Shown: positions 13,663 to 63,115 of the stretch, piece by piece
Layout: every line of letters begins with the position of its first letter
How positions within the stretch are numbered: position 1 is the first letter of the stretch
From: an uncultured Bacteroidales bacterium
GTDB taxonomy: Bacteria; Bacteroidota; Bacteroidia; Bacteroidales; VadinHA17
Reading direction: 5' to 3'
NCBI GenBank assembly: GCA_963756885.1
Contig: CAVWPG010000002.1
Coordinates: 1,977-65,976 of the forward strand
DNA length: 64,000 nucleotides
Notes under the pieces: model-generated
The model's input: the letters and a program-made list of their open reading frames with translations, nothing else
Database searches by the model: none
Told to the model about the DNA's origin: nothing
Program-made: the position numbers and the translations under genes

Positions 13663-14032
13663 AGGGAAACCGCTGCTTCGCCCGAGAGTCATTGGCTGGG
13701 TCCCGCCTGAATGAAGCGTCAGGGTCGTGAGTCATGAGTGATGAGCAGCAAAAAGCGTAGAGCGTAGAGCAGAGAGCGCAGGCTATTATGATGCAGATTC
13801 AACAGATCTGCACTGGGTTGATGGAGGATGTAGGAAAAATTGAAATCCATTAACCGCAAAGGTCGCAAAGGTTTTACGCGGAGTACGCAAAGTCGCGATA
13901 GCTATCGGGATTAAATTCAATGCTTTATCTTTGCGTACTTTGCGCTCCCGATAGTATCGGGACTTAGCGCACTTAGCGGTTAAAAAGACTTCTTCAACAG
14001 CCCCAAGGGGGTAAGAAACAGAGGAGCACAGG
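13663..14032. repeat. mosaic intergenic repeat block R1
   Basis: Contains heptad tracts (AGCGTAG x4 at 13754-13781), a copy of the CAGATCTG 35-mer in reverse orientation, CGCAAAG words, and two palindromes (13894-13910, 13946-13962). Collinear in inverted orientation with 61596-61850. Confidence 0.85.
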
Positions 14033-14340
14033 ATTGTTCTTATGTTTGAAACAACCTGTCAGGAACAGTCAGGCGGATTTGATTCGAAAAGATCCTTTCC
14101 AGATTCCTTAACCTGACGGCAATGCCTTCGGGCCAGGTATAAAAGCCTTAAAATCGCAATAAAAAATCACAGCTGTGATAAACCTTTTTACAGTTCAACT
14201 GTTTCATATTATATCAGTTTCGGTAAGAGGTAATAATTAAGTGTTATACCGGCCCGGTTTAATATATGAAATTAAAATTCATCAGGAAAATATAAAATTT
14301 TTAAATTTGTTACTTTTACTTGTTTTTTATAAAAAAATAT

Positions 14341-14348
14341 TACATTTG
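14341..14348 (+). promoter_or_regulatory. Bacteroidota-type -7 promoter box TACATTTG (consensus TAnnTTTG) for the ilv-leu leader
   Basis: Exact match to TAnnTTTG, ending 14 nt upstream of the leader ORF start. Confidence 0.5.
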
Positions 14349-14362
14349 CATTCTGATTTTAC

Positions 14363-14431
14363 ATGATTATGTTGAAAAACACTTTAATATATATTATTAC
14401 CCTCGTGCTTCTCATTGCCCTGCGCAAATGA
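14363..14431 (+). CDS. putative ilv-leu leader peptide MIMLKNTLIYIITLVLLIALRK
   Basis: 22-codon ORF in which 12 of 22 codons are Ile/Leu/Val. Lies between a -7 box and an intrinsic terminator, just upstream of ilvD. Confidence 0.65.
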   Translation: MIMLKNTLIYIITLVLLIALRK

Positions 14432-14466
14432 ACCGGGAATAATATGTATTACTATAAATATACAGA

Positions 14467-14495
14467 AGCTTTCCGGGAAACCGGGGAGCTTTTTT
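14467..14495 (+). terminator. intrinsic terminator (attenuator) upstream of ilvD
   Basis: AGCTTTCCGG-GAAA-CCGGGGAGCT, a 10-bp stem with two G-U pairs and a GNRA loop, followed by TTTTT. Ends 16 nt before the ilvD ATG. Confidence 0.7.
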
Positions 14496-14511
14496 AATAT
14501 AAAGAAAGAAT

Positions 14512-18180: not shown

Positions 18181-18280
18181 GATACTTCTGTGCTCCTCCA
18201 GTGTACCTCTGTGTAAGTTCTTTTTTAATTAAACAGAGAAACACAGAGAAAAAAAAGAGATACACAGAGGCTAAAAAAAA
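18181..18280. repeat. mosaic repeat block R2 (CTCTGTG / CACAGAG inverted words) inside the ilvB-ilvN gap
   Basis: CTTCTGTGCTCCTCC..CCTCTGTGTAAGTTCTTTTTT..AAACAGAGAAACACAGAG..ACACAGAGG. The same words occur at 41484-41612, 59983-60010 and 63095-63115. Confidence 0.8.
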
Positions 18281-21474: not shown

Positions 21475-21600
21475 CCCTGTTCGCCCGTTCGCCCCTAACC
21501 CCCAAGGGGGGGCTAAAAAAGTGGTGTTTAATCGCTTTTTAACCCCCCTTCAGGGGTCCCGATAGCTATCGGGAAGGGGGGCAAAAAGGGAAGAGGAAAA
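21475..21600. repeat. mosaic repeat block R3 inside the leuA-leuC gap
   Basis: CCCCCAAGGGGG palindrome, then CCCCCCTTCAGGGGTCCCGATAGCTATCGGGAAGGGGGG (palindrome core 21557-21574), then a purine-rich tail. Confidence 0.85.
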
Positions 21601-48542: not shown

Positions 48543-50912
48543 TTATTCTATCACCGTAACCTTCATCTCTCCCGGCTCCAACCCTTCCGCTTCGGCCCTT
48601 ACCTTCACAACACCCGGTTTCATTCCCGCCTTCAGTAATATACATGCAATACCTGCCTCCGCCTTCGCCGGATTAGCCCCAACCAGCGACACATCACCCG
48701 CCACTGAAAATCTTATCGGCCGGTTATCTTCAGGAAGCACTGTTCCGACAGAGTCTGTAACTGAAGCATAGACGAAAACAATGTCATTCTTGCCTGACTG
48801 AAGCTCCCTGCCGCTAAGATCCACAGACAGCGCTATCCTTTCAGGCCTGCCCGGAGTCTTCCTGACAGCAGAGACAACCTCCTTCCCGTTTATAAAACCC
48901 TTAGCCTCAAGAACTCCTGGCTCAAAGCGGCTCATCATAAACGTGAAAGGGGGCCAGGTAAGCTTCGTTGAAAACATGTCAGGCAAGGGTTTCTGACGGT
49001 AGACTACCCTGCCGTTAACTGATAATTCAACCTCCGCGCAATTGCTGAAGACCTTTACAGTCCTGAATGCCGGATCACTCCAGTAATTGGCAATGAAGAT
49101 CATGGGATCCGCATTCTCTGCCTGGCTTTTGTAAAAATAAAATGAAAACTTGGGGATCCTGAAGATATCCATTATCCCCGACGACTCTATATCAGGTGCA
49201 TAACCCCGCTTGTAGTCGAACATAAGCCAGTTTGCATCCCCAATGGCATGCCCCCTCAGATCGTCATTATGGGAGTCCTCGAAGTTGAGAGCCTGCTGAA
49301 GAAGTCTTTTCTGCCCGAAACCCCTGAGCTGCCTGGAGGAGCGCTCTTCAGGCTTCAGGCCCGCATAAGCTGTCTGGTTGAACCCGGCATTCATGGCATA
49401 ATACTCCCAGTCGCCATATTCGGCAATGAGCAAAGGCTTGTTCTTCGAATACCTGTTCCAGTAATAGGGAGGATCGGCATGCTGCCGTGCCGGGATGAAA
49501 ATATCATATACATCATCTATCCATCCGCATGTATAAACATTGCTGAAAGGAAGCTCCCCGTGAACAGCTTTATGAGCCCGTTCCATGAACTGGCGCGGCA
49601 TCTCAGTCTCATTGAGCGACGGTTCCCAAAGCACTACGCAGGGATGGTTCCTGTCGCGCCTTACCATCTGCCGGACATCAGTGATGGCATTGTCCTGAAA
49701 TTCCCCATTGCCAAAAAACTGCCATCCGGGAATCGGATCCATAACCAGGATGCCAAGCATATCGCAGGCATCCAGAAAAGCCGGAGACTGCGGGTAATGG
49801 GAACAACGGACAAAATTGAACCCCGCCTCCCTGATCTTGACCGCATCCCTGTACTGGGCATTATCGGAAAGGGCATTTCCTATATAGGGATAAGCCTGGT
49901 GACGGTTGGTACCGGTGAGCCTGACCTTCTCCCCGTTAAGGGTGAAGCCATCACGCGCTGAGACTGCAAAAGTGCGTATGCCGATCTCCATTTCAACAGA
50001 ATCGGCTGCCATACCATCGCTAAGTACTCTTACCCTGAGCTTATAAAGTGAAGGCGATCTGACTGACCAGAGACGTGGATTCTTTACTGTAAGCTTTTGA
50101 TTGAAACGGGTGAAACCAGAGGCAGGAATCTGCCTGCTGTCTGCTATTCCCGTGAGAGTTTCAGATCCGTCAGGCGATACGAGGGAATATTGCAGTCCGG
50201 CATTCCGGGGCGCGCTCCCTTCATTTTCAATATCTGCCTGAATGTTCACCTCAGCCATTGCTGCGTTCACGCTGCCGAAGCTGATAAGCATCCCTCCTCC
50301 TGCCTCCCTGCCGGCTTCAACGGCATCTGAAATATGGATCTTCTCTTTTATAAGCAGTGTAACATTCCGGTAGATCCCGCTATAATAGTTAAAATCCATC
50401 TGAGCAAGGGGCTTTCCCGGAGGGACAAGCGGGTTATCGCGGTTATCAAGCTCGACAAGCAGGCAGTTCTGTTCTCCGAAGGCGATCTTACCGGCGAGAT
50501 TAATATAGAAGGGGAGATATCCGCCCTTATGTGTCATTATAAGATCGCCGTTCAGAAAGACCCTGGCTACCTGCATGGCTCCATCGAACCGGATCGTCAG
50601 CGATTTATCCCTGTACTTTTCAGGGATAATGAAAAACTTCCTGTACCAGGCTATGCCCTGCCACTGCAGTCCTGATGAATCTGCCGGCTCAATACTGGCT
50701 GTATGAGGCAGGCTTATCTTCTGCCAGCGGGATCCGCTGCTATCCTGACCGGTAAAGAGTTCCGGTGAAATGACGCCTGCAGGATCCCTTATGAACTGCC
50801 AGTTGTAATTGAAATTACCGTCACCCACTGCTAATGAAACCTCCTCTTTTTCCTTGCAGGAGGATACAAGCAGAAGCAGGGTCGACAATGCCAATAAGCC
50901 GCGGATGATCAT
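48543..50912 (-). CDS. glycoside hydrolase family 2 (beta-galactosidase/beta-mannosidase-like), complete catalytic domain, secreted
   Basis: 789 aa. GGYLPFYINL, RDRNHPCVVLWEPSLNE (acid/base) and LLIAEYGDWEY (nucleophile region), with C-terminal Ig-like domains. Confidence 0.85.
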   Translation of the reverse strand: MIIRGLLALSTLLLLVSSCKEKEEVSLAVGDGNFNYNWQFIRDPAGVISPELFTGQDSSGSRWQKISLPHTASIEPADSSGLQWQGIAWYRKFFIIPEKYRDKSLTIRFDGAMQVARVFLNGDLIMTHKGGYLPFYINLAGKIAFGEQNCLLVELDNRDNPLVPPGKPLAQMDFNYYSGIYRNVTLLIKEKIHISDAVEAGREAGGGMLISFGSVNAAMAEVNIQADIENEGSAPRNAGLQYSLVSPDGSETLTGIADSRQIPASGFTRFNQKLTVKNPRLWSVRSPSLYKLRVRVLSDGMAADSVEMEIGIRTFAVSARDGFTLNGEKVRLTGTNRHQAYPYIGNALSDNAQYRDAVKIREAGFNFVRCSHYPQSPAFLDACDMLGILVMDPIPGWQFFGNGEFQDNAITDVRQMVRRDRNHPCVVLWEPSLNETEMPRQFMERAHKAVHGELPFSNVYTCGWIDDVYDIFIPARQHADPPYYWNRYSKNKPLLIAEYGDWEYYAMNAGFNQTAYAGLKPEERSSRQLRGFGQKRLLQQALNFEDSHNDDLRGHAIGDANWLMFDYKRGYAPDIESSGIMDIFRIPKFSFYFYKSQAENADPMIFIANYWSDPAFRTVKVFSNCAEVELSVNGRVVYRQKPLPDMFSTKLTWPPFTFMMSRFEPGVLEAKGFINGKEVVSAVRKTPGRPERIALSVDLSGRELQSGKNDIVFVYASVTDSVGTVLPEDNRPIRFSVAGDVSLVGANPAKAEAGIACILLKAGMKPGVVKVRAEAEGLEPGEMKVTVIE

Positions 50913-51128
50913 ATTTCCCGATTTTTAATAAAAGTAAGAATTATTTGTTAATTCCCGGCAGTTCACGCTTCTCAGCTTTGGCGCAGCTGTAACCGGCCAT
51001 AAGGATCTCAGAATCCTCATGCCGGTCTTCATAACAGCGTTAATCCCATCCTGAAATTGTAATCGTATATTTGCAAATCGTTCATATCTTTAAAGCCGTA
51101 AGGATAACCTTCGTCTGACAAAGAGAAC

Positions 51129-52349
51129 ATGACATCACGAGAACGGATCATAGCATCCATAAATCATATTCAGCCCGATAAAGTACCGATCGATCTTGGC
51201 AGCTCCACAGTAACCGGGATCTCAGCCATAGCCTGTAACAAACTGAAGAAGCACCTTGGGATAACCAGCCGGACAAGGGTATTTGATGTTGTCCAGCAGC
51301 TTGCGGAGGTAGATATGGAGATTGTCAATATGCTCGGAGTCGATGCCCTCGATATCAACAGGGTATCTGCTGATGGCAATGACTGGTACGATGTGGTGCT
51401 GTCCGACGGCAGCAGGGCGCAGTATCCCTCATGGTTCAGGCCGGTAAGGTCGGAAGATGGTTCCATGTACACTACCGACGGGAACGGAACAGTTATATCA
51501 AGGAAAGCGGCGGATGCAACATTTTTCGACCAGATGCATTTTCCATGGGAGGATGGATATCCGGAAAATCCTGACGATCTGAAGGAAGCACTGAAGAAAA
51601 TAAGCTGGGTCGTTCATTCCCATTCGTCAAACCTGAATGAAACAGAGCTCAGGAACAAGCTGATGACCCTGAAGGAATCGACCGGTAAAGCTCTTGTAAT
51701 GTCGGGCGGGGTGAAGCTTCTCGAGCTTGGCTTCTTCATCCGGAGAATGGACAATTTCCTGATGGACCTTATGATAGGTGACGAAAAGCTCTCCGGATTG
51801 CTCGACAGTCTTGTCGATATGCACCTTTCCGGACTGGAGAAAAAATGCCGGAATGTCGGGGATATCGTTGATGTTATAAGATTCGGCGATGATCTTGGCA
51901 TGACATCCGGTCCCTTCATGGATCTGGCCACATTCAGGAAATATCTGAAGCCCAGGTACAAGATACTGTGTGATTACGTCAGGAAGCACAGCAGCATGAA
52001 GATCTTCATGCATTCATGCGGAAGCATAAGGCAATTCATACCCGACCTGATCGAAGTCGGCTTCGATATCCTGAACCCTGTCCAGACCAACTGTTACGGC
52101 ATGGATCTCGTGGCGCTGAAGAATGAATACGGCAGGGACATTACCTTCTGGGGCGGAGGGGTCGATACATCTTCCGTCATCAGCAGGGGGACCCCGCAGG
52201 ATATAAGGAGGGATGTGCTGATCAGATGCGAGATCCTCTCGAGGGATGGAGGATTTGTCTTCGCTCCCATTCATAATATCCTCTCGGAAGTACCCCCTCA
52301 GAATGTTATGGCAGCATATAATGCCGTACGGGAATTCAATGAAGGGTAG
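51129..52349 (+). CDS. uroporphyrinogen decarboxylase (URO-D) family protein, non-HemE paralogue A
   Basis: 406 aa. FGDDLGMTSGPFM, MHSCGSI, ILNPVQ and FWGGGVD are typical of the URO-D/MtaA-like TIM barrel. Lacks the HemE N-terminal RQAGR motif. No signal peptide. Confidence 0.75.
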   Translation: MTSRERIIASINHIQPDKVPIDLGSSTVTGISAIACNKLKKHLGITSRTRVFDVVQQLAEVDMEIVNMLGVDALDINRVSADGNDWYDVVLSDGSRAQYPSWFRPVRSEDGSMYTTDGNGTVISRKAADATFFDQMHFPWEDGYPENPDDLKEALKKISWVVHSHSSNLNETELRNKLMTLKESTGKALVMSGGVKLLELGFFIRRMDNFLMDLMIGDEKLSGLLDSLVDMHLSGLEKKCRNVGDIVDVIRFGDDLGMTSGPFMDLATFRKYLKPRYKILCDYVRKHSSMKIFMHSCGSIRQFIPDLIEVGFDILNPVQTNCYGMDLVALKNEYGRDITFWGGGVDTSSVISRGTPQDIRRDVLIRCEILSRDGGFVFAPIHNILSEVPPQNVMAAYNAVREFNEG

Positions 52350-52369
52350 GAACGGGTCGCGACCCGAGC

Positions 52370-53431
52370 CTACAATAATTCTCTTCTTCTGATCTCCTTC
52401 GTCGCCCCGATCATAGCCATAAACCCGTCAACCGGAATATATCCGGGAATGGAGTTACCGGATCCGAGCCCAAAGCCTTTTGCCTTATTCCTGTAAACTG
52501 TACCGTTCTCTAAAACAGTTCTGTAAACTTCATCCGGAGAAGAAAGTATCAGAAGATTCAGGTCAAATCCTCCGAAAAGACCAATCTTATTGGAATATTT
52601 ATCGATCCAATCGATAAAGGGAGCAATCTGATCCTCATTGGAATGCTTGGCATCGATGCCCAGGCCTATGATCTCATCCATCAGCGGAAATATGCAGCCG
52701 CAGCTGTGCAGCAGGAACTTTTTACCCGAAGAATGAACGAGGTCAATAACCCTTTTGTACTGAGGAAGAATATGTTGTCTTATGATTTCAGGCTCCAGCA
52801 AAGTGGATGTCTTATGCCCGAGATCGTCTCCCATCCTGTAAAAGACGAACATGTCGTGATAATTTCCTATAACCCAGCTCCAGAGCTCAACCCAAAGATC
52901 ACCTATTCTTATGAAAAGGTCCCGGAACAGATCCGGATCCAGACACTGCATCACGCATAGTTGTTCAAAACCGACAAGATCCCGGCTGGCTTCGAAAATA
53001 CCATATCCGCATCCACCATAAGCTTTCATGCCGTCAGGAAGGGTCTTTCTTATCGCATCAAAATGAGGAATATATTTTTCCCTGAATATCCCCGGAATAT
53101 CCTCCCATGGATATTTTTCAAAATCATCCCTCGTCTGAATGGGTCCGGCCATCCCTCCCATTATTGCTCCATGTCCGGGGAAGATGTCACATATTGCTGC
53201 CTCAAAATCAAATCCGTCGTATGTCATATCTCTCCAGAAGCCGGTCACTTTCCTGTAATAACCGATCAGTTCGTCAGCAGTCAGGTTCACGGGATTTATC
53301 TCCTCTCCAAGAGCTTTGGAAATGAATGGGGGATCGATATGATGCTCATAGAGCGGTAACCTGTCAGGCCGCTGATTATTGAGCACCTGAAGGAGGTTGT
53401 GGTAATCGGGTAGGAACGAAGTGTGTTTCAT
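52370..53431 (-). CDS. URO-D family protein, divergent paralogue B
   Basis: 353 aa. MGDDLGHKTSTLL, LHSCGCIFPLMDEII and GLGSGNSIP. Lacks the RQAGR motif. Confidence 0.7.
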   Translation of the reverse strand: MKHTSFLPDYHNLLQVLNNQRPDRLPLYEHHIDPPFISKALGEEINPVNLTADELIGYYRKVTGFWRDMTYDGFDFEAAICDIFPGHGAIMGGMAGPIQTRDDFEKYPWEDIPGIFREKYIPHFDAIRKTLPDGMKAYGGCGYGIFEASRDLVGFEQLCVMQCLDPDLFRDLFIRIGDLWVELWSWVIGNYHDMFVFYRMGDDLGHKTSTLLEPEIIRQHILPQYKRVIDLVHSSGKKFLLHSCGCIFPLMDEIIGLGIDAKHSNEDQIAPFIDWIDKYSNKIGLFGGFDLNLLILSSPDEVYRTVLENGTVYRNKAKGFGLGSGNSIPGYIPVDGFMAMIGATKEIRRRELL

Positions 53432-53456
53432 GCATCAGAAATATTTACTCAATGGT

Positions 53457-53558
53457 CATAGCTAGCGCGGATTTGCAATCCGTGCTTTAAAATATTGGCT
53501 CTGCTGGCCCCAATTATGCTAGCCGGCGCCGATTTGCAATCGGGGCCTTAAACATTGT
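53457..53558. repeat. two tandem hairpin units GCTAGC..C(G/C)GATTTGCAATC(C/G)G..TTAAA(A/C)ATTG
   Basis: Hairpins CGGATTTGCAATCCG (53468-53482) and CCGATTTGCAATCGG (53529-53543), about 61 nt apart, between two minus-strand URO-D genes. Confidence 0.8.
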
Positions 53559-53576
53559 TGCATTATCACAATCCTT

Positions 53577-54836
53577 CTATCTGAACTCATCCACCGCCTC
53601 AAACATTGCCATTATATTTTCCGCAGGAACATCGGGCAGTATATTATGAACGGTATTGAACACGTATCCTCCTCCCCTGCTGAATACATCTATATTATGC
53701 CTCACATGGTCCTTCACCTGCTGCGGCGTGCCCTGGTTGAGAACGCTCTGTGTATTCACCCCTCCTCCCCAGAAAGTCAGATCGGCACCAAATTCCCTCT
53801 TGAGCTTTTCTGCATCCATGTTTACGGCATTGATCTGCACCGGGTTGATGATCTCGAACCCGGCATCTATCAGTCCGGGAATAAGCTCATATATGCCGCC
53901 GCAAACATGCAGCATGGTATGGGCCGATGAATTGGCCTTCACATAATCGCACATCATCCTGTGCCGCGGTCCGAAAAATTCCTCATAGATCTCCCTTGGC
54001 ATGAATGGACCGTTATTTGTTCCAAGGTCATCTCCGAATTTGATGATATCGACTAGATCCCCTACCGATTCACAGATCTTTGCAATGAACTCCATGTGGC
54101 CGCTGACAAGCTGATCGAGCAGCCTGTGGACATTCACAGGATCAAGGTAGAGATCCATAAGGAAATTATCTATCCGTCTGAGAAAGGTGCCCCATTCGAA
54201 GAGGTTGCATCCGATGCCTATGAGAAATGCCTTGTCGGATCGTGCCCGTTCCCTGATTATGGTTTCGCGAAGCATCTTCCAGAAATCCTTTTCATCCATC
54301 CAGTCGAAGGGGGTGAATCCGAACCCTCCCCAGATCACCCTTGTCATCTCACGGCTGATGCCTTTATAATCTGAAGGATAACCGTCAATATATGGAAATA
54401 TTATCTGATCGAAGAAGGTTGCTGCCGCTGGCATCTTGCCAATGTATTCACCGGTTTTGCCGGGTGCGAGCCAGCTGCCATCGGGTTGTATTTCAGGATT
54501 GAACCATTTGGGGTAAAGTGCCGGATAGCCTTTGATAAGTTCCAGCTCCTGCCAGTAATCTTCCGCGGTATTGAAGAAACGTCCGGCATCCACAACATCC
54601 ACCCCGAAATAGTCGAGGAATTCCATGTCAGGCTGTACAACCTCCTGGATCACATCATAGACATGAGTCTTCAGGTGGGGCTTGCCGATATGGCGGGCCA
54701 GGTTCTGCCAGGCCACTACAGATACGCCCGAACTGGGCGTGGCCCCGATATCCACCGGGAGCCTGTCGGGTTGCCTGTGGCTAATTGCGGCAAGGATTCG
54801 TTCTCGTGATGTCATAATATCCATATTTATTGGCAT
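53577..54836 (-). CDS. URO-D family protein, paralogue C (roughly half of residues identical by eye to paralogue A over the conserved C-terminal half)
   Basis: 419 aa. FGDDLGTNNGPFM, LHVCGGI, IINPVQ and FWGGGVN. The start may be the internal MTSRERILAAISHRQPDRLP at 54815, which parallels paralogue A. Confidence 0.75.
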   Translation of the reverse strand: MPINMDIMTSRERILAAISHRQPDRLPVDIGATPSSGVSVVAWQNLARHIGKPHLKTHVYDVIQEVVQPDMEFLDYFGVDVVDAGRFFNTAEDYWQELELIKGYPALYPKWFNPEIQPDGSWLAPGKTGEYIGKMPAAATFFDQIIFPYIDGYPSDYKGISREMTRVIWGGFGFTPFDWMDEKDFWKMLRETIIRERARSDKAFLIGIGCNLFEWGTFLRRIDNFLMDLYLDPVNVHRLLDQLVSGHMEFIAKICESVGDLVDIIKFGDDLGTNNGPFMPREIYEEFFGPRHRMMCDYVKANSSAHTMLHVCGGIYELIPGLIDAGFEIINPVQINAVNMDAEKLKREFGADLTFWGGGVNTQSVLNQGTPQQVKDHVRHNIDVFSRGGGYVFNTVHNILPDVPAENIMAMFEAVDEFR

Positions 54837-54840
54837 TATT

Positions 54841-55125
54841 TTTTACCACTGAGTTGCACGGTGTTTTACACGGAGTTACACTGTTATAACTGGCAGTCAA
54901 AAATGTATTTTCAGAAGATTAATTTACCTGGTTTCTTACTCCGTGATTTGCAGTCTGTTTTACTCCGTGTCCTGCACCGTGGAACTCAGTGCAACTCTGT
55001 GGTTAATGCAGCACCCTTTCAACCCTTCAACCCTTCAACCCTTCAACCCTTCAAAATTTTTCCACACCCTTCATCCAGCATCCAGCCCTCGCCTATTATT
55101 AGGCCGGCAAAGCCAGCACCATGAC
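54841..55125. repeat. mosaic repeat block R10 (CACGGAG words in inverted arrangement plus an 8-mer tandem)
   Basis: TACCACTGAGTTGCACGGTGTTTTACACGGAGTTACACTG (54844-54883), with an imperfect inverted partner at 54941-55010. CCCTTCAA x5 at 55014-55054. Confidence 0.85.
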
Positions 55126-55126
55126 C

Positions 55127-58021
55127 TTATAGCTCTATCTCAATAAACTTCACCTCATAAGGCTTAAGAATCACCGATTTCAACGGCTGCCCGATCTCTT
55201 TTCCGATCACATTCACCTCGACCATCCTCTTTATTGTCTGTCCGGGCACGGCAGACGAAAGCGTTACCTCCGCATCCTTGCCCTCGAGCTCGCGGAAGTG
55301 AAGAAGCAATGTCCCGCTCCCTTTGAAAGCAGGCCTGCTGTTAATGAGCATTGCGTTCGCCGGACCAGTAATCTTCAGAGTCCCGAGCGAAGGCGCTGTA
55401 AGCTCATTGGCCCCTGCCGGGAAAGTCCTTGACGGGAATGGGTTCCGCTCATTCCAGGCATACTTTGTTGCAAATGTATTTGTTGTATCTGCTGAAGAGG
55501 TGAGCTGGTAGCTCCAGCTGAAAGCTCCCTCCTGGAATGCCCTGAAGTTGGTCATCCAGTAGTTGTTCATCACATATGAGTAGAGCCAGGGCTTTCTTTT
55601 CTTCGGTATCCGGTCCCACTTTCCCATGTTGAAATCGCTGAACTGCCAGAGAGGCGCCTCATTGCTTACAAGGACTATCTGGCCTTTCTGCCCCCTGACA
55701 GCCACGAAATTCTGGGCAACGTTCCAGTCGGTCGATGAACCAGGCAGCTGCTGTCCCTGCGAAAGGATGCCTCCCGTCGTTTCAAAGACTATCCGTGAAC
55801 CGGGCAGGGAAAACGGGAAGGCAACATAAAGGGCTTCGGGATCGGTGATTATGAGCTTCCGGGCCATATATTTGAATTCAACCTTCTTGACATTTTTGTA
55901 AAGCCTGATCTCCAGTACAATACCCTTGGGAAGATCGCCGACCCCCGGCTCACATCCGGCCAGGTCAGATGAGATCTTTACACTTTCCCATACAGGGCCG
56001 TCGATCCCCTTGTCCACTCTGACATTATATACGGTTGTGCGGGTAAATGGCGCAATATCGCGCTTCACCGATGTCTCCCTGACGGGCTGACCTATATTAT
56101 ATGGATTCTGTCCGTCAGCTAGCTCCTGCTGCAGCTCCTTGTCGTACAGGCTCACTATGGCTCCCGTCTTCCTGTTGATGATTATCCTGTAAAAATTATT
56201 CTCCAGGATTTCATCGTTTTTTCCCGAATATGATGCCGGCTCCTGATCGCTGACCTCGATCTTCAGAGCCTTGTATCCCATGGCGGGGATATCATTTACC
56301 TCGAGCACCCAGTAGGCACCTTCTGCCCTTGTGCCCAGCACCTGTGCCGGGACTTCCCTGCCGGTAGTGAGATCGGTAATCCTGGCTTTTTTGCTGACAG
56401 GAAGGACCTCATAGTCGATAAAAAGGTTCACATCGCCCGACCTGTTCCAGCCCATGGAGTTCATGACATATATAACAGGAAAGCCCGCTTTTTTCAGGAA
56501 GGGCTGGAAGCGCGCCAGAGCCTCTTCGTTCAGCAATGTGGTCTTTTTGACAGCCTCCCATGCATAGGCTCCCTTCTGAAGCCATTGCTTGGTCGAGTTT
56601 TCGGACCAGGGCTGGCTTATACTCTCAGCGGCACCGCAGGTATGCTCATCGAAAAAGATCTCATTTTCGCTTATATGATCCATATCTGACCGGAGGGCAG
56701 GGTTCAGCTCCCCTCCCATCATGGAGACCATGGCAAACAAGCCCTGATCAACCTGCATTGTATTCTGGTTTTTCCTCACCTCTGCCGTCTCCCTCGAGGT
56801 AGAGCCATAGCCGTCGGTCCACCAGTCGAGCCATGCCTTCCGGATAACGGGAAGCCTGTCTGAATAATTCTTTTCCACATAAGCAGGAAACTCGCCGGCG
56901 ACGGCAAGTCTCAACTTCGGAGTTTCATATTTCTCATTCCATTTCTTCACAAGCTCGCAGGCCGTTGTCGAGGGGGGAGCATTATCGGTAAAATACCCGG
57001 AGAACTGGATCCCTATCCTGTCGAAGGGATAGCCTTTGCTATCGATGTCGGCAAGATGACCCAGCATATTTTCTGCCTTTATGGAGGAGCTTTCGAGCCC
57101 GAAAAAGTTGCCTGTCATATAATGATCGGCACGAAAGGCGAGCAGCCTTGCTCCCGAAGGAGCCTCCCACCAGAATGCGGTGGGCTTGTCAAACGGGAGT
57201 ACCGAGCGGGTTTCATTTATCCCCATTATAAGATATTTTACACCGGTATTCTTAAAATAATCGGGCATGCACCAGGCAATTCCGTTGACATCGTTCTGCA
57301 TTGCTGTTCTGACAGGGATGCCTGCATCGGAGAACTCTTTAAGAGGCTCAAGGAAATCGTACATCACATTTTCATCGGAGATCTCAGCCATATTGCAGTA
57401 CATGCCTGCAACCTCGATACGTCCTTCGGCGATCCTCTTTTTGAACCTTTCTATCTGCGCAGATGGTCTTGACCTGAGATATTCCCTCGTCACCCAGGCC
57501 GATTCACAGGTCCAGCGGAACTTTGCATCGTCGGGCATATTATCGGTAAGGTCGCAGTAATCGAGTGCATAATCGATATAGCGCATGTGCTCGGCCAGTA
57601 TCTCCGACTGCGGACGAGTATAGCCGATGTCGGTATGTGAATGCTCCACGAAATAGATCTCCCAGTGCTTTGGCGGCTGAAGGGTGAGCGAATACTTTTC
57701 CGGGGCGCCCTCATCGATCCTGGCAGTAAAGGTTACTGGTTTTGGCTTCGTAACGGCAGGAACAGTCAGGAGGAATTTATTCTGACCCTTCTTCAGATCA
57801 GCTGAAAGAAGTGTTTTCCCGTTGCCCGAGACAACTATCTTTCCGTCATTGTCTGAACTGCAGCTCACGGCTACCTGCTGGTATGATTTGCCGCCCTCCC
57901 TGAAGAGGACCGGGGCATTGAGGAATTCAACCTTCGGGTATGATGTCTGACCTTCAAGCTTTATAGTGCACATTGGGATCAGCAACATTATTACTGGCAG
58001 CAGGAGTTTGTGTTTTATCAT
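55127..58021 (-). CDS. glycoside hydrolase family 38 alpha-mannosidase, secreted
   Basis: 964 aa with a signal peptide. IYFVEHSHTDIGYTRPQ (the GH38 HSHxD metal/catalytic motif). Length and architecture are typical. Confidence 0.85.
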   Translation of the reverse strand: MIKHKLLLPVIMLLIPMCTIKLEGQTSYPKVEFLNAPVLFREGGKSYQQVAVSCSSDNDGKIVVSGNGKTLLSADLKKGQNKFLLTVPAVTKPKPVTFTARIDEGAPEKYSLTLQPPKHWEIYFVEHSHTDIGYTRPQSEILAEHMRYIDYALDYCDLTDNMPDDAKFRWTCESAWVTREYLRSRPSAQIERFKKRIAEGRIEVAGMYCNMAEISDENVMYDFLEPLKEFSDAGIPVRTAMQNDVNGIAWCMPDYFKNTGVKYLIMGINETRSVLPFDKPTAFWWEAPSGARLLAFRADHYMTGNFFGLESSSIKAENMLGHLADIDSKGYPFDRIGIQFSGYFTDNAPPSTTACELVKKWNEKYETPKLRLAVAGEFPAYVEKNYSDRLPVIRKAWLDWWTDGYGSTSRETAEVRKNQNTMQVDQGLFAMVSMMGGELNPALRSDMDHISENEIFFDEHTCGAAESISQPWSENSTKQWLQKGAYAWEAVKKTTLLNEEALARFQPFLKKAGFPVIYVMNSMGWNRSGDVNLFIDYEVLPVSKKARITDLTTGREVPAQVLGTRAEGAYWVLEVNDIPAMGYKALKIEVSDQEPASYSGKNDEILENNFYRIIINRKTGAIVSLYDKELQQELADGQNPYNIGQPVRETSVKRDIAPFTRTTVYNVRVDKGIDGPVWESVKISSDLAGCEPGVGDLPKGIVLEIRLYKNVKKVEFKYMARKLIITDPEALYVAFPFSLPGSRIVFETTGGILSQGQQLPGSSTDWNVAQNFVAVRGQKGQIVLVSNEAPLWQFSDFNMGKWDRIPKKRKPWLYSYVMNNYWMTNFRAFQEGAFSWSYQLTSSADTTNTFATKYAWNERNPFPSRTFPAGANELTAPSLGTLKITGPANAMLINSRPAFKGSGTLLLHFRELEGKDAEVTLSSAVPGQTIKRMVEVNVIGKEIGQPLKSVILKPYEVKFIEIEL

Positions 58022-58262
58022 GGTCGTTTATTTTAATATTTTTTTTACCACGGAGTTACACAGGGTCTTTCACGGAGTTACACGGTTTGATCAACCCAGC
58101 ACCAAGCACCCAGCCTTCGCTAGGGCTTCGGCTGGCAAAGCCAGAGCCCTGGCCCTGCGCCCTGAGCCCTGAGCCCTGCGCCCTGAGCCCTGCGCCATCC
58201 TCTGTGCTCCTCTCTTTTTTGCCCCTCCCGATAGCCATATCGGGAGACCACTGTTAAAAAAG
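58022..58262. repeat. mosaic repeat block R11
   Basis: TACCACGGAGTTACACAGGGTCTTTCACGGAGTTACACGG (58046-58085), heptads ACCCAGC/ACCAAGC, GCCCTG(C/A) x7 (58146-58196), and TTTTTTGCCCCTCCCGATAGCCATATCGGGAG..GGGGGCAAAA. Confidence 0.9.
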
Positions 58263-58337
58263 GGGGCAAAACTTAATAACTGAAAGTTTTACAGCTATAG
58301 TATTTTCACCTAAATGGGGTTGCTATAAATACCAGAT

Positions 58338-59600
58338 ATGAAAGTACAAAATTGTAAGCACAATACTGCATTTGGAGGGATAAATTTTGTTTTTGAGTAC
58401 CTTGAAGAAGGTAACTTCATAGTTTATTCGAAGTATTTTCCTGGATTAGAAATCAGAGCGCGTACAGCTGGAAAGATATAATATGCTCATATTAAGCATT
58501 ATTTGTGCGGGGTGATTGCATTGAAGATTTACAGATACATCTGAAGGAGACATTTTCAGGAATCCATTTATTAATATGCCAAGTTCTGACACAGTTTTAA
58601 AAAGGCTTAAGGAGTTATCTGCAGACAGCAATCTATGCTTTGCAAAGAGAGGAACTGTGAGCATATCTACAACAGGAACTCACATATTAGAGAAACTTAA
58701 TTTGCAGTTACTTGAGAAACTTGGAGCTTTTTTTAAAGATGAGATTACGATTGATTATGATAATACTATTCTATTCACTGAGAAAAGTGACAGTAAAATG
58801 ACTTATAAAGAAATCCTGGATATCAGCTAGCTGTATGCACTCATTAACGGAGACAGCTTTTTTATATTGAAAACAGAAATGAGAACAGTGACGCAAATCC
58901 TTTCAGGCAGATACTTAGAGCGCTTATTTACTTACTAAGTAAAAGGTACATAAAAAAGCTGATCATTTAGAGCAGACCTGCTTCTTATCAATTTGATGTT
59001 ATGAAGCTTCTGGATCAGAAGGTAAGAACTTTTACATTGGATGCACGAATAGTTATATAGAAAAATATTTTGCGCAGATTCATAATTGAGTGTTCATTAT
59101 TATACCTGTAATGAGACAATGGAAGTCGCTGAGATCAACATTCCTTTCAACAACAAGCAAGATGATAATAGAAAACCTCTAAGGAATATAGATTGATAGT
59201 GAAAAGAAAACTGACAGAAGACGACCAACTAAATCTGTTTACCAAGATGTTCGAATACAGGGCTATACTTACAAGTAACACAGAGTGGAGTACTGTTGAA
59301 ATAGCTCAATTTTATAACCATCGTGGAAACATGGAAAAGCAGTTTGATATACTTAAAAATGATTTTGGCTGGAATTACATGCTTTTCTCAAAACTGCACA
59401 GAACACCGTATTTTATATATACAGCATTTGCAGAAATCTATATCACGATATTATCAGATACTTCTCAGAAACACCAAGCACTAAAACCTACATCCAGGTT
59501 AAAAAGTTCCTATTCCTGTTTATCATTCTGCCTGCAAAATGGATAAGAAGGTCAGACAAAGCTATCTGAGAATATATGGTGAATACTTCTCAACTAGATC
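58338..59600 (+). mobile_element. IS1380-family transposase remnant (multiple frameshifts and stops), AT-rich
   Basis: Fragments in three frames: MKVQNCKHNTAFGGINFVFEYLEE, GGDCIEDL, MPSSDTVLKRLKELS, ENRNENSD, SRPASYQFDV, RLIVKRKL..EYRAILTSN..AQFYNHRGNMEKQFDILKNDFGW, and PAKWIRR. The order and motifs match my memory of IS1380-type DDE transposases. I could not identify terminal inverted repeats. Confidence 0.7.
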
Positions 59601-60030
59601 ATATAGACACCAATTTAGCTCAATGCTCTACGCTCTACGTTGCCAGCGGTATGGGTAACATATGTCCCGAAACTAAAATAACTAACGAGAATCCTAACTG
59701 TTATCTCGAATTTGATATAAAAAATCTCAGATAACTATTGAAGCTCTACCTCATATCTATAGCCTCGACTCTTTAAGCGCTCTACGCTCGTTGATCGAAG
59801 CACCCAACACCCAGCATCATAGTACCCAGCACCAAGCACCCTGAAGGGGGCATTAAACCAGTGCAGATCTGTTGAATCTGCGTCATCTGCGTGCCATTTT
59901 TAATAGCCTCTGCTCTCCGCTCTACGCTCTACGCTCGACTCACATCTCACATCTCACATCTCACCACTCATCACTCCTCACTGCTCTGTGTCCCTCTGTG
60001 TCAGTTCTTCCCTTCCTTTGCAATCAGAGG
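59600..60030. repeat. mosaic repeat block R12
   Basis: GCTCTACGCTCTACG, heptads CACCCAA.. (59801-59843), a forward copy of the CAGATCTG 35-mer (59860-59895), a heptad-phased tract at 59908-59980 (CTCTACG, CTCACAT x3...), and CTCTGTGTCAGTTCTTC. Confidence 0.85.
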
Positions 60031-60034
60031 ATTT

Positions 60035-60832
60035 CTATCTCCTTTTCACCTTGCCAAGCAGCAGATCCGTCAGGTTCTCCGCCGCCTTCCTGTTATCAAA
60101 GCCCTCCGGCAGCCGGTCGTGATCGATATACTCGTTATAGATCCACGGATCGCCTATTGCAAAAACATAGCCCTTGCCGACATTGTTCTCAGCAATCAGA
60201 ACCTTGCCATTCTCCGTAAGGATCGATCTGGCGGTGCCGGAGAGATTTAAATCGGACACCTCCTTTATATATATTTTCCTGACATCCCTGAAGAGCGGAT
60301 GATCAGGAAGGTTTTTGGATGCTCCCATTTCAAAGTCATCGCCCGGGACAGGATGGATCGTTACATGGTTGAAAGTCATCCCGAACTGTGATGCCAGCTG
60401 GTTGAGATGGGTGAACTCGCAGTTGGGGGCATCGTTGGCGAGTATAGCCAGAACACCCCCTTTTCTGACCCACTCTGTTATGGCTTTAATGTCGTCAGGC
60501 ATTATGTAGTTGGGTGACGGATTTTCGCTTGTTGTATCAGGATCGACAATTATATAGATATCCACTCCCGAGAGGGTTTTGGCATCGGGCTTTCCGAGGG
60601 TAGCGAGCTTTGCTCCCCTTGCTGTAAATGAATCTCCCCAGCGGGAGTAGCCGCTGAATTCGGTGTCTGTCCAGAGATAATGGAACGGCTTGCCGGTAGC
60701 TTTATTTGTCTCGTGATTGAACCAGTTGTCGAGTCCCACGACCGGCTGTGACTGAGCACAGCCTGAGGCAATGAGAGTTAATGTGAATGCTATCGGAAGA
60801 AATGTATTCAGAAAGATGCCTTGCTTTTGCAT
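60035..60832 (-). CDS. lipoprotein of unknown function (possibly DUF4350 / ThuA-like, class I glutamine-amidotransferase-like fold)
   Basis: 265 aa with signal plus lipobox TLIASGC. The fold guess is weak, resting on the pattern DIYIIVDPD..VRKGGVLAILAND..GKGYVFAIGDPW. Confidence 0.6.
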   Translation of the reverse strand: MQKQGIFLNTFLPIAFTLTLIASGCAQSQPVVGLDNWFNHETNKATGKPFHYLWTDTEFSGYSRWGDSFTARGAKLATLGKPDAKTLSGVDIYIIVDPDTTSENPSPNYIMPDDIKAITEWVRKGGVLAILANDAPNCEFTHLNQLASQFGMTFNHVTIHPVPGDDFEMGASKNLPDHPLFRDVRKIYIKEVSDLNLSGTARSILTENGKVLIAENNVGKGYVFAIGDPWIYNEYIDHDRLPEGFDNRKAAENLTDLLLGKVKRR

Positions 60833-60902
60833 GATCGTTTCATTTAATGTTATTCAAAAATATAAAACATTAGCGATGTAACGACAAGACTCCTGAATAT
60901 GT

Positions 60903-61325
60903 TTAATAAACAAGTTTGACCTCGATATCAGCTATGACCTCATCCTCAACGTCCCATACAGCTTCCCAGATCCCTTCCGATTTTTCTGAGATCAGGGCAC
61001 CTGCGGTGTATTCGGTATGGATAAGTGTCTTTCGGTAGAGCATGGGCTGCTCCACCTCATGAGCCAGCGAGCCGTCGGGGGCATAGAGTCTGAACCGCAG
61101 ACTGGTTCCCAGCATCAGGTCGCTTACGAAGCCGACGAACATAACACTCTCCGGGGCATGAAATGTATTTTTTATATTCTTAAATTCGTTATAGTCGTAG
61201 ATCCCATCCTTGTTGTAGTCGACCCACGCGTTGCAGGCAAAAAACTTAATCGGACGGTGTGATGGCTTTTTATTTGCGACGCTGCATGAGGACATCAGCA
61301 ACAATATGATCAGAAGCTTTTTCAC
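60903..61325 (-). CDS. small lipoprotein, unknown function
   Basis: 140 aa with signal plus lipobox LLMSSC. I recognise no motif. Confidence 0.55.
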   Translation of the reverse strand: MKKLLIILLLMSSCSVANKKPSHRPIKFFACNAWVDYNKDGIYDYNEFKNIKNTFHAPESVMFVGFVSDLMLGTSLRFRLYAPDGSLAHEVEQPMLYRKTLIHTEYTAGALISEKSEGIWEAVWDVEDEVIADIEVKLVY

Positions 61326-61329
61326 CGGA

Positions 61330-62175
61330 TATTTTTACACTGAGATAAATTAATCCTTCAACGCCGGAAGGGGATAAATGTTCAGGCTTTGCCGTGGGAA
61401 GCTTTCGGTGGCGACTGGTGCTGCAGAGAAGGGACCCCCTGCCTCCTGTTTTTTGCCCCCTCCCGATAGCTATCGGGACCCCTAAAGGGGGCATAAAACC
61501 AGTGCAGATCTGTTGAATCTGTGTCATCTGCGTGCCAAATTTCTTCCATAGTGCACCAAGCTATCAATTATTGAAGTCAGACAAGGATGCTAATGTTTGG
61601 GGCTGCTGAAAAAGTCTTTAACCGCCAAGTGCGCAAAGGTTTACGCAAAGTGCACAAAGACAAAACTTTGTTATTTAGATCTTTGCGTCCCGATAGCTAT
61701 CGTGATCTGCATAATCTCTTTGCGACCTTGGAGCCTGCCCCGATCGAAGTATCGGGGGTTAATGGATTTCGACTTTTTCTACATCCCCCATTAAATCAGT
61801 GCTGATCTGTTGAATCTGTGTCATCTGCGTGCTATTATTCTTAGCCCTTTATACCAATTCATACTTAAATAAAGTTAAGCCTGCATGCTAAAGTTTCCCC
61901 ACCTTCAAAAGGAGTGGAGAGTTCACGCGATTACTCACTGATGAAACCCGGCTTGGAGGTTCCTGACAGATTGCATTAAACAGAGATAAAAGTTCAGGCT
62001 TTGCCATGGGAAGCTTTCGTTGACTATTGGTGCTGCAGAGAAGGGACCCCCTGCCTCCTGTTTTTTGCCCCCTCCCGATAGCTATCGGGACCCCTAAAGG
62101 GGGCATAAAATCAGTGCTGATCTGTTGAATCTGTGTCATCTGCGTGCTATCATTCTTAGCCCTGAGCTATGCCGC
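61330..62175. repeat. mosaic repeat block R13 (largest), including two 165-bp direct repeats
   Basis: 61381-61545 and 61993-62157 are about 96% identical. Between them, 61596-61850 is an inverted, collinear relative of R1. Palindromes at 61461-61478, 61688-61705, 61737-61756 and 62073-62090. Confidence 0.9.
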
Positions 62176-62177
62176 AG

Positions 62178-62732
62178 TTACCTCCTCTTCTTGATCCCCC
62201 GCTTCGCAGGTTTGAAGGTCAGGCCGAGCCTTACATTGACGAATGAATCGGTCGACTGTCCCGACCGCAGCAGCAGGCATGCTCCCAGGTTGATTCCGAC
62301 TTTCTGTCCAAGAGCGTACATCACTCCGATGCCCGGGTTAATGAAAAGGTTTGCAGAGGATTTCGAGTCGAAGAGCACTCCTGCCTCCATGATGCTGTAG
62401 GGGGTGAACGGACGTATTATGAAATTATAATGGAGATGAAGGTAAACCGGAATAATTGTCCCGCCAGGATAGAACCAGGCCCCCGCTCCGCCGCCTGCCA
62501 TCACATTCTTGTCAAACTGATAGCCATGAACTGTAGTGAAGCCATAGAATGATTTAAATCCGACAAGGCCCGGGTGGTGTGTATTGAAGCCGCCGTCAAA
62601 CTCGGTTATCGTGATATAGCCCGGAGTATAATCGAGGGCTGAATATGGTTTATTCGGCTCCGCCAGGAACTGGGCCCTGACGGTGGTCATGGCCGCCATA
62701 AGGAAAAAAATTATCGGGAATATTCGCTTCAT
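62178..62732 (-). CDS. small outer-membrane beta-barrel-like protein (OmpW/porin-type), unknown function
   Basis: The ORF track gives 62178-62801; the internal start MKRIFPIIFFLMAAMTTVRAQ (signal peptide) at 62732 is more plausible. Alternating aromatic/Gly beta-strand pattern, with LGLTF near the C-terminus. Confidence 0.55.
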   Translation of the reverse strand: MKRIFPIIFFLMAAMTTVRAQFLAEPNKPYSALDYTPGYITITEFDGGFNTHHPGLVGFKSFYGFTTVHGYQFDKNVMAGGGAGAWFYPGGTIIPVYLHLHYNFIIRPFTPYSIMEAGVLFDSKSSANLFINPGIGVMYALGQKVGINLGACLLLRSGQSTDSFVNVRLGLTFKPAKRGIKKRR

Positions 62733-62759
62733 GTTCAGGTTAATTCGGATCTCTGTTTT

Positions 62760-63115
62760 TTCTTGGTGCTTGATGCCTGATGCTCGGTGCGGCCGACTCA
62801 CATCTCACAATTGTTTTTAACCACGGAGTACACGGAGTTTTTCACGGAGTTACACTGTTTGGTCTCAACATCAACCCCCTGACGCTCCGATCAGGGTCTC
62901 GCTTCGCCCGACTCACGACTCATATCTCATATCTCATACCTCTGCGCCTCTGCGCCCAGCCTCCGCAAAAGCTTCAGCTGGCAAAGCCTGCGCCCTGCGC
63001 CCAGCCTCCGCAAAAGCTTCGGCTGGCAAAGCCTGTGCTCTCCGCTCTACGCTTTTACTACTCATGACTCTTCACTCACCACTCACTACTATGCTCTCTG
63101 TGTCAGTTCTTCAAC
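62760..63115. repeat. mosaic repeat block R14
   Basis: TAACCACGGAGTACACGGAGTTTTTCACGGAGTTACACTG (62818-62857), hairpin CCCTGACGCTCCGATCAGGG, heptads (GACTCAC, ATCTCAT...), a 45-bp tandem x2 (62952-63041), and CTCTGTGTCAGTTCTTC. Confidence 0.9.

Follow-up and report, generated by a model that had tools for sequence, protein, structure and literature searches.

A mosaic of intergenic hairpin and heptamer repeats in an uncultured Bacteroidales bacterium, and a palindrome that appears to be shared across the Bacteroidota

The stretch of DNA considered here, 64,000 nucleotides (nt) of contig CAVWPG010000002.1 (positions 1,977 to 65,976 of its forward strand) and hereafter called the window, carries genes for glycoside hydrolases (GH106, GH2, GH38) and a plus-strand run of operons, ilvD-B-N-C, leuA-C-D-leuA2-B, hisG-D-C-B-H-A-F-IE and pheA-aminotransferase-tyrA-aroG/CM-aroA, together with the gene of a pyridoxal phosphate (PLP) enzyme. 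The theme of this report is what lies between these genes: blocks of short repeats, assembled from heptamer arrays, hairpins, a 36-mer and an 18-bp palindrome, TCCCGATAGCTATCGGGA, termed PAL. Metagenomes of soil, sediment and wetland contain hundreds of LeuA relatives with 90-97% identity, those that bear a name being metagenome-assembled genomes of Bacteroidota and Bacteroidales; two soil runs (X1, X2) contain scattered, low-coverage pieces of the genome (150-260 nt), and the host of the blocks is an uncultured soil or sediment Bacteroidota.

In the window, PAL occurs seven times at no more than two mismatches and the 36-mer five times at no more than three, with none expected in either case. 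Composite units of 50-173 nt, 84-94% identical and present as both direct and inverted copies, emerge from a repeat search, and Tandem Repeats Finder detects some 25 short-period arrays in the blocks, nearly all of period 7, so that nearly every block has heptamer arrays. When intergenic and coding DNA were compared by self-BLAST on a curated gene map, 164 high-scoring segment pairs (HSPs) joined intergenic to intergenic DNA, covering 1835 of 9992 intergenic nt, as against four between coding sequences (CDSs; 102 of 54069 nt) and two between intergenic DNA and a CDS. One connected network embraces 11 intergenic regions, starting at 13508, 18177, 21473, 33609, 36251, 41482, 48456, 54837, 58022, 61326 and 62733; no repeats occur between the genes of the first 13.5 kb. 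A first-pass annotation, made from the sequence alone, had announced at least 13 sites built from the single vocabulary of one unnamed family. The network is real, but its count is 11 sites plus one, and the single family proved too simple, its parts being the apparently phylum-wide PAL, a published class of repetitive extragenic palindromic (REP) elements, known heptamer simple sequence repeats (SSRs) and lineage-specific words. The reuse of modules in varied orders and both orientations is borne out by the composite units and the self-BLAST network. Two attributions fall away: the supposed weaker match at 32899-33000 has no significant partner in self-BLAST, and 53457-53558, taken for a member, matches itself alone and forms a separate family. 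A block given as 59600-60030 is repeat only from about 59728, its left part belonging to a decayed insertion sequence (IS). The blocks, said never to overlap a credible CDS, are extragenic by self-BLAST, except that an array starting at 36236 covers the last five codons of the aminotransferase gene; and of the estimated 3-4 kb of repeats, the coordinates sum to 3.55 kb but BLAST-covered repeat to 1.8 kb. Confinement to the window, which would have spoken against a dispersed family, is not what is seen: a contig of the same species, L254 (loci outside the window are designated by L numbers), carries modules past the window's right end, and the family is therefore not limited to it.

The blocks and the seven kinds of module that compose them are collected in Table 1. 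The order (GGTGCTG)n-(AGAGCGT)n-GGCTATTA-36-mer-G/C hairpin recurs at three sites (13754-13836, 33836-33970 and 59798-59936). Since words and their complements flank a common centre, whole blocks fold as long imperfect hairpins, with z-scores from -3.1 to -6.7 (-3.7 to -6.7 for those at 18181, 13840, 21475 and 41482; -5.6 for 13663-14032, and -6.7 on both strands for 41482-41612). PAL variants keep the stem CCCGAT/ATCGGG intact around loops of 3, 4, 6 or 8 nt, which fits a hairpin better than a protein site of fixed spacing. The decayed IS matches DDE_Tnp_1 weakly, has a motif resembling Y-x2-R-x3-E-x6-K, and was inserted into a repeat block.

Table 1. Repeat blocks and other features of the window, repeat modules, and loci of other genomes in which PAL, a GIY-YIG gene and a tRNA gene lie together. 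Coordinates are window positions unless an L number is given.
Feature	Location	Strand	Parts and context
Mosaic block	13663-14032		Between GH2 gene and ilv/leu leader; heptamer arrays 13724-13778; reverse-complement 36-mer 13788-13823; CGCAAAG/CTTTGCG words; 1-mismatch PAL 13893-13910; 3-nt-loop PAL 13948-13964; G/C hairpin
CTCTGTG/CACAGAG word hairpin	18181-18280	+	Fills ilvB-ilvN spacer
G/C-hairpin block	21475-21600	+	leuA-leuC spacer; exact PAL 21557-21574
Composite 3' of hisIE	33725-34020	+	Reverse-complement 36-mer; G/C hairpin; exact PAL 33790-33807; GGTGCTG and AGAGCGT arrays 33836-33912; second 36-mer-like copy and G/C hairpin 33922-33990
Array and G/C hairpin	36236-36400	+	GAAAGGA array 36236-36307; G/C hairpin with 2-mismatch PAL 36338-36355
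Long hairpin	41482-41612		Between convergent genes; CTCTGTG(TAA) and CACAGAG words; PAL variant with 3-nt loop 41562-41578
Lone TTTTAACCACGGAGTCACACGG word	48504-48525	-	Matches 58042 and 62815
Two direct REP-like hairpins, separate family	53457-53558	-	GCTAG-CGCGGATT-TGC-AATCCGTG-C and a variant; matches only itself in the window
Word hairpin, array and module	54837-55126	-	ACCACGGAGTTACACGG words and complement (long hairpin); ACCCTTCA array; GGCTGGCAAAGCC module
Mosaic block	58022-58262	-	CACGGAG words; GGCTGGCAAAGCC module; GAGCCCT array; 6-nt-loop PAL 58225-58244
Decayed IS, outside the repeat family	58263-59727		Low GC (39%), 1.48 kb; fragmented open reading frames
Mosaic block	59728-60030	-	AAGCACC, GCTCTAC, CTCACAT and CTCATCA arrays; G/C hairpin; 36-mer 59859-59894; CTCTGTG words
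Densest block	61330-62175	-	173-nt direct repeat 61373-61545 and 61985-62157; CGCAAAG words with GGTTAATGGATTTC; PALs 61461, 61688 (1 mismatch) and 62073; PAL-like hairpin 61739-61758; 36-mers 61500, 61797 and 62112
Mosaic block	62760-63115	-	CTCATAT, CCTCTGCG and ACTCATC arrays; CACGGAG words; CTCTGTGTCAGTTCTT; 45-nt tandem GGCTGGCAAAGCC module, repeated twice
Module A			TTTT(A)TGCCCCC-TTTA-GGGG-PAL-GGGGGC-AAAAAAC; G/C clamp around two hairpins
Module B			36-mer; usually adjoins module A
Module C			Arrays of 7-10-nt words (AGAGCGT, GGTGCTG, CTCACAT, GAGCCCT, GAAAGGA, others)
Module D			ACCACGGAGTTACACGG words
Module E			45-nt GGCTGGCAAAGCC module
Module F			CGCAAAG words with GGTTAATGGATTTC
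Module G			CTCTGTG and CACAGAG words
Leader-peptide attenuator	14375-14500		Upstream of ilvD; MIMLKNTLIYIITLVLLIALRK, then stem-loop and T run
Leader-peptide attenuator	26418-26560		Upstream of hisG; leader peptide, then stem-loop and T run
Leader-peptide attenuator	34122-34255		Upstream of pheA; MNIVYNYFISFYYFFFYFKKR, then stem-loop and T run
Leader-peptide attenuator	39941-40065		Upstream of PLP enzyme at 40105; MRLRMFYDWSWRSLNYNAVK, then stem-loop and T run
PAL-disrupted tRNA fragment, GIY-YIG gene, intact tRNA	L089 249-790		
As above	L255 2790-3264		
As above	L256 2920-3321		
As above	L257 2540-3374		
As above	L117 40-495		
As above	L049 4320-4735		
As above	L033 7240-7748		
As above	L109 4119-4802		

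Open reading frames (ORFs) of 40-95 codons traverse the blocks, and on that ground alone those containing the peptides PIAIGRG, TELHGVT and NLCHLRA might be taken to encode small proteins, a reading so improbable that we set it aside. Orthologues differ by no synonymous and four non-synonymous codons and paralogues by none and six, third-position bias is lacking, translations of one module vary in frame and come from both strands, loops gain or lose numbers of nt indivisible by three, and a repeat-ORF peptide searched against 5.8 billion proteins found only its own orthologous copy; the first-pass verdict of junk holds. Rfam returns no family at gathering score anywhere in the window, the four leader attenuators included, and only noise (E about 0.4) for 58000-63200, nor are there tRNA genes in the window. 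As terminators the blocks were considered and rejected: the intrinsic signature of a G+C stem-loop followed directly by a T run does not occur in them, the convincing sites lying outside, in the leader regions and at 63163, and the spacer classes in which PAL is found are those of the background. Among PLSDB plasmids and INPHARED phages the 173-nt unit has no match. The 22-nt core of the 36-mer has none in JGI metagenome contigs, which marks the 36-mer as lineage-specific, as most of the words also appear to be.

How dispensable the blocks are emerges from relatives with 77-81% DNA identity to the window. The ilvB-ilvN spacer, of 109 nt in the window, measures 15, 72 and 65 nt in L167, L168 and L170, and the leuA-leuC spacer, of 149 nt, measures 0, 202 and 129 nt in the same genomes; sequences at orthologous sites are largely unrelated, while the ilvD and hisG leader-peptide attenuators are kept in all relatives compared, and the blocks accordingly behave as dispensable insertions and not as conserved regulators. 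An exception is a G/C hairpin element in the leuA-leuC spacer that is common to the window, L168, L251, L252 and L253. PAL is present in the window copy alone, exactly between CCCCCCTTCAGGGG and GGGGGGC, and was hence inserted separately and later, the surrounding element being older. In relatives the gap from the GH2 gene to the ilv leader holds asnA (L167 3026-4704, L168 2441-3976, L251 2475-4588), which is missing at this site (13508-14511) from L170 and from the window, where a 370-nt repeat block stands instead. At the pheA leader, a promoter-like site, TTTG...TAnnTTTG, lies at 34070-34100.

Variation within the species, sought by the first-pass annotation as presence/absence polymorphism and found here as well as among relatives, is seen against L254 (ENA ERZ25039463, 20 kb), which is 98.5-99% identical to window positions 49854-64000. 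Substitutions are about as frequent in CDSs (0.75%) as in intergenic DNA (0.88%), and indels of at least 3 nt fall in the blocks in seven cases out of seven, with none in 9678 CDS sites. L254 is 57 nt longer in the GCTCTCC array of block 59728-60030; the window has two more GAGCCCT units in block 58022-58262, where the array difference from L254 amounts to two 6-nt units, and 3 nt (CAT) more in the CTCACAT array, and arrays in block 62760-63115 differ by 5-13 nt. The PAL at 58225, perfect in L254, has two extra nt in its loop in the window. On a larger scale, one period of 612 nt, delimited by the direct repeat of 173 nt, and the 1.48-kb low-GC segment with the decayed DDE transposase, are in the window and absent from L254. 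Slippage, repeat-mediated indels and PAL as an independent insert are all observed in these comparisons. Past the window's right end, in a polysaccharide-synthesis neighbourhood, L254 has at its own coordinates 5357-5731 a member of the 23S rRNA-intervening-sequence/bAvd-like four-helix-bundle gene family.

The arrays have an orientation. In the window, 20 of 21 have more G than C when read along the sense strand of the genes beside them, with a sign that flips with gene direction, so that orientation tracks transcription and not replication; composite module A and the 36-mer likewise keep one constant orientation relative to transcription. Selection against C-rich, G-poor untranslated RNA, which would invite Rho, is a possible reason. 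As a general law of array orientation Rho avoidance finds no support outside the window when all arrays are taken, which divide 64 to 62, and weak support in the GC-rich skewed ones (21 of 30). Repeats of this kind can matter as RNA: REPs of Escherichia coli affect mRNA as stabilisers, processing sites or barriers to Rho and RNases. The blocks might similarly be selected cis-acting RNA elements of the operons, in keeping with their strong hairpins, their consistent orientation, their position, for the most part within or terminal to co-directional operons and hence in transcribed DNA, and the retention of the leuA-leuC G/C hairpin element in several diverged relatives. We nevertheless regard such a selected role as improbable, in view of L167, which manages with leuA-leuC and ilvB-ilvN spacers of 0 and 15 nt, the unrelated sequences at orthologous sites, the unit-number and 612-nt polymorphisms within one species, the background proportions of the spacer types that hold PAL, and the lack of a terminator signature or an Rfam match.

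PAL itself reaches far beyond this genome. An exact-match scan, with one genome per species, gave at least 120 loci, where by our own estimate some 10-20 chance matches would be expected across all phyla. Among the matches listed, 117 of 120 loci belong to named Bacteroidota (one contrary label is that of a metagenome-assembled genome (MAG) contig), from the Flavobacteriales, Chitinophagales, Cytophagales, Sphingobacteriales, Bacteroidales and Saprospiraceae; PAL also occurs in 46 IMG/VR contigs. Its flanks are unrelated between genomes, it lies inside long ORFs in 13 of 130 copies (68% of random positions do so), and it occupies tandem, convergent and divergent spacers at background proportions. 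Its edges are sharp, stems being extended immediately at them no more than chance would give; with small offsets allowed, the flanks form a stem of at least 5 bp in 32 of 183 copies (9.9 expected) and share a direct word of at least 6 nt in 45 of 183 (11 expected), which indicates that PAL prefers hairpin tips and tandem arrays, the same preference that the window displays. Unselected relatives hold four copies in 832 kb, versus seven in the 64-kb window. The other window modules are absent from the PAL loci among the matches listed, save that L190 has words of the CTCTGTGTAA type and a scattering of genomes has CGCAAAG or CGGACTT words. The scan thus points to PAL as a phylum-wide element of the Bacteroidota and not a module peculiar to this genome, and a literature search found no published mention of the palindrome string. 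In other Bacteroidota PAL is embedded in further repeats (L036, L070, L075, L120; L002, L041, L100), and contexts in Flavobacteriaceae include ...GTCATTGCGAG-PAL-GAAGCAATC... and ...GAAAGCCCGACC-PAL-...GGTAACGCCCAAA; this embedding suggests additional phylum-level repeat families.

An exact 18-bp sequence that is kept across orders in non-homologous flanks, forms a perfect dyad, and in two variants has its outer bases changed in pairs (CCCCGATAGCTATCGGGG in L257; L046 and L106) could also be a conserved site of a Bacteroidota DNA-binding protein, maintained by selection, to which the nuclease genes described below would be incidental neighbours. The loops of varying length around an intact stem, which suit a hairpin better than a dimer site, argue otherwise, as do the occurrence of PAL in junk contexts (arrays, loops of other repeats, broken tRNA copies), a density that differs about 20-fold between related genomes, and polymorphism within species; we give this possibility very little weight.

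Clustering of the ORFs near PAL yielded no transposase, and its sole informative cluster was a small GIY-YIG protein. A tblastn search of 2.26 Mb of loci found six genes of this family, all in PAL-seeded loci and 40-453 nt from PAL, and none in about 1.4 Mb of loci not seeded with PAL. Their products belong to PF01541, with UPF0213 and SLX1 as the nearest solved structures, and consist of a minimal domain of 85-100 amino acids (aa) without a DNA-binding extension; the genes are chromosomal. The layout is a partial tRNA copy with PAL, the GIY-YIG ORF and an intact copy of that tRNA, all co-oriented, PAL usually replacing 3-7 nt of the D-loop or anticodon loop in the broken copy. In a reciprocal test, three homologues taken from a protein database by sequence alone (L255, L256, L257) all had this layout, with PAL, or PAL with one or two mismatches, 30-180 nt upstream: an exact PAL in L256, in L255 a one-mismatch PAL within a tRNA-Met copy, in its anticodon loop, and in L257 the variant with both outer bases changed together, within a tandemly duplicated unit. 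PAL thus lies upstream of the GIY-YIG ORF in nine of the nine genes found, and its linkage to the nuclease and tRNA genes in other genomes is a matter of observation. Twelve PALs are no more than 600 nt from a tRNA gene, tRNA genes number 2.28 per 100 kb in PAL-seeded loci against 0.29, and L003, L029, L082 and L154 hold more PAL-disrupted tRNA fragments.

Several of these loci have features of their own. The GIY-YIG gene and an intact tRNA-Met of L089 stand between two halves of a tRNA-Met, both terminated by PAL, an arrangement suggestive of a cassette inserted in the anticodon loop. The GIY-YIG stop codon of L256 falls inside the 5' end of the tRNA. A Prolixibacteraceae MAG (L105 6300-7200) has the GIY-YIG gene and PAL inside a putative IS91-type (Y2 HuH) transposase ORF, apparently a second kind of target besides tRNA genes. 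The family has no relative in IMG/VR by alignment-based search, the literature searched contained no paper describing a link between PAL, GIY-YIG genes and tRNA genes, and bacterial stand-alone Slx1-like proteins have been described only as a minimal GIY-YIG lineage (PMC1564403).

That PAL and these Slx1/UPF0213-like genes constitute an undescribed two-part selfish system across the Bacteroidota, akin to REP and its transposase, is a tentative proposal, rather doubtful as a whole. The nuclease, a structure-specific one, would cut hairpin loops, such as the D-loop and anticodon loop of tRNA genes, PAL would be installed there, and solo PALs would seed or mark the mosaics.

The alternative is a transposase. 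Subclass 2.6 of the RAYTs (REP-associated tyrosine transposases) is peculiar to Bacteroidetes, and the atypical hairpins on its flanks are found repeatedly in the genome (Quentin et al., 2018; PMC6006769); the hairpins tabulated there include GCTAGCGCGAGCGTCCCGCTCGTG, and the REP of Flavobacterium johnsoniae, whose reverse complement contains GCGCGGATTTGCAATCCGTGC. The 21-nt core at 53464-53484 and the reverse-complemented core of the F. johnsoniae REP are identical, which makes 53457-53558 a member of that published class; REPs of this type are also present in L034 and L099. A single-copy Y1 HuH transposase (subclass 2.6 or 2.4) with its gene in another part of the genome might mobilise the hairpins, PAL among them, and besides this exact kinship one may cite the GATAGC/GCTATC of PAL, which resembles the GCTAG/GATAG foot of those REPs, and a RAYT-like ORF 650 nt from PAL in L010. 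We still think it unlikely. PAL does not figure among the RAYT-flanking hairpins tabulated for 11 Bacteroidetes species (PMC6006769); it is perfect, without orientation or foot, and identical across orders where REPs are normally species-specific; the conserved foot (GT[AG]G, or in subclass 2.6 GCT[AG]G with a CGCG...CGTG stem) is missing from PAL and the G/C hairpins alike; and a RAYT gene accompanies one of the 120 PAL loci among the matches listed, the background density. The absence of a Y1 or RAYT gene from the window, as first annotated, is confirmed. The RAYT-like ORF of L010 (997-1692, from a MAG of the Saprospiraceae) has an in-frame interruption, a perfect palindrome of 40 nt (1242-1281) that is not PAL, an arrangement in agreement with the description of subclass 2.4; heptamer-word hairpins (GTATCAAG.../CTTGATAC...) occur in the same locus.

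On balance we consider it probable that the blocks are a non-coding counterpart, in Bacteroidota, of REPs and bacterial interspersed mosaic elements (BIMEs), combined with heptamer microsatellites, selfish or neutral in nature, with the GIY-YIG nuclease as candidate partner of PAL. Slippage, as observed, grows and shrinks words of 7-10 nt into arrays, inverted sets of one word giving rise to long imperfect hairpins; composite segments of 50-170 nt would be copied between intergenic regions, and their recombination, also observed, generates duplications and deletions; and PAL, a discrete 18-bp palindrome of the whole phylum, inserts into hairpin loops and arrays. A stand-alone Slx1/UPF0213-like GIY-YIG nuclease would be its trans-acting partner, as RAYT is for REP, the window PALs being solo copies and the nuclease gene lying elsewhere in the genome. 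The blocks would ride passively in operon transcripts, any influence on mRNA stability being a side effect, and would be tolerated because they carry no terminator, leave intact the A-rich stretch before start codons, and mostly have their G-rich strand as the sense strand.

Several points weigh against this account. Its explanation of dispersal covers PAL and not the 36-mer or the G/C composites, and the leuA-leuC G/C element, which persists across lineages at about 78-81% average nucleotide identity, could have a function; the blocks may, more broadly, play a role at the RNA level. The G-rich sense of the arrays is weak outside the window (the 21 of 30 and 64 versus 62 given above), and the window includes several copies that depend on one another. 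PAL is directly abutted by direct repeats of 4-5 nt in 12 of 183 copies (1.1 expected), which could point to another mechanism; such repeats, which in a miniature inverted-repeat transposable element (MITE) would be a target-site duplication of fixed length outside terminal inverted repeats, are missing in about 90% of copies, and most lie inside 7-nt arrays, where a 4-nt duplication is indistinguishable from a 3-nt deletion. A GIY-YIG gene or tRNA fragment adjoins only some 5-8% of the PALs sampled, and the reciprocal sample was small (n = 3). Neither the window nor the 20-kb L254 contains a GIY-YIG or tRNA gene, and the window has solo PALs only, without the proposed unit of PAL, GIY-YIG and tRNA genes, so that we infer the link to this genome from others; the action of the nuclease on PAL, and a dependence of the window PALs on it, are likewise suggested by gene arrangement.

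The origin of bacterial intergenic repeats is understood mainly for Proteobacteria, through REP and RAYT, and the window offers comparable mosaics from another phylum, made of other parts. Should the link be causal, minimal GIY-YIG nucleases of bacteria would gain a function, and the two-part system, if true, would add a route for the spread of short palindromes and would explain the broken tRNA copies beside tRNA genes. In practical terms, the blocks spawn false small ORFs that inflate counts of hypothetical proteins, and as indel hot spots they can break assemblies and strain comparisons.

Comparison with known systems begins with REP/BIME elements and the REP doublets (REPINs) with RAYTs of Proteobacteria, a resemblance that was noted from the outset and holds at the level of architecture: extragenic, high-copy, hairpin-forming modules that vary in order and orientation, frequently lie within operons, are hot spots of rearrangement and probably rely on a nuclease or transposase encoded elsewhere. 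As in BIMEs, defined modules occupy many intergenic sites in a limited set of orders and both orientations, and as in REPs there is a short extragenic palindrome in many copies, imperfect ones included. The window repeats differ in lacking the GT[AG]G foot, in a core hairpin that is a perfect 18-bp palindrome, identical phylum-wide and not species-specific, in the heptamer microsatellites within the mosaics, and in a linked gene that is GIY-YIG and not a Y1 HuH transposase. Subclass 2.6 REPs share with 53457-53558 the GCTAG foot and the CGCG...CGTG hairpin with a G-T pair, a design foreign to the main network of PAL, 36-mer, G/C hairpins and words, which has no RAYT gene at hand. The heptad microsatellites correspond to known long SSRs with units of 5-11 nt (Mrazek et al., 2007, as summarised in PMC4679880). 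They resemble these, and the cyanobacterial short tandemly repeated repetitive (STRR) and TAACTGA repeats, in being intergenic tandem units of 5-11 nt, mostly heptamers, whose number is polymorphic between close relatives and which are absent from orthologous spacers of sister taxa; they are distinguished by many words per genome, by inverted sets that form long hairpins, and by interleaving with dispersed non-tandem modules.

HIP1 (GCGATCGC) of Cyanobacteria is, like PAL, a short palindrome common to a whole phylum, by a mechanism that to our knowledge has not been established; it is 8 bp long, very abundant and frequent inside genes, whereas PAL is of 18 bp, extragenic, much rarer and linked to a nuclease gene. 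Free-standing GIY-YIG homing endonucleases, finally, are exemplified by the Seg proteins of phage T4, with SegB in the T4 tRNA gene region. Bacterial stand-alone Slx1-like/UPF0213 proteins (PMC1564403) belong in the same comparison. The PAL-linked genes are similar to these in being small nuclease genes without partner genes, beside tRNA genes, with duplicated or broken target copies left behind. They differ in encoding a bare 85-100-aa domain, in being chromosomal and not found in IMG/VR, and in carrying upstream a fixed 18-bp palindrome that also occurs alone elsewhere.

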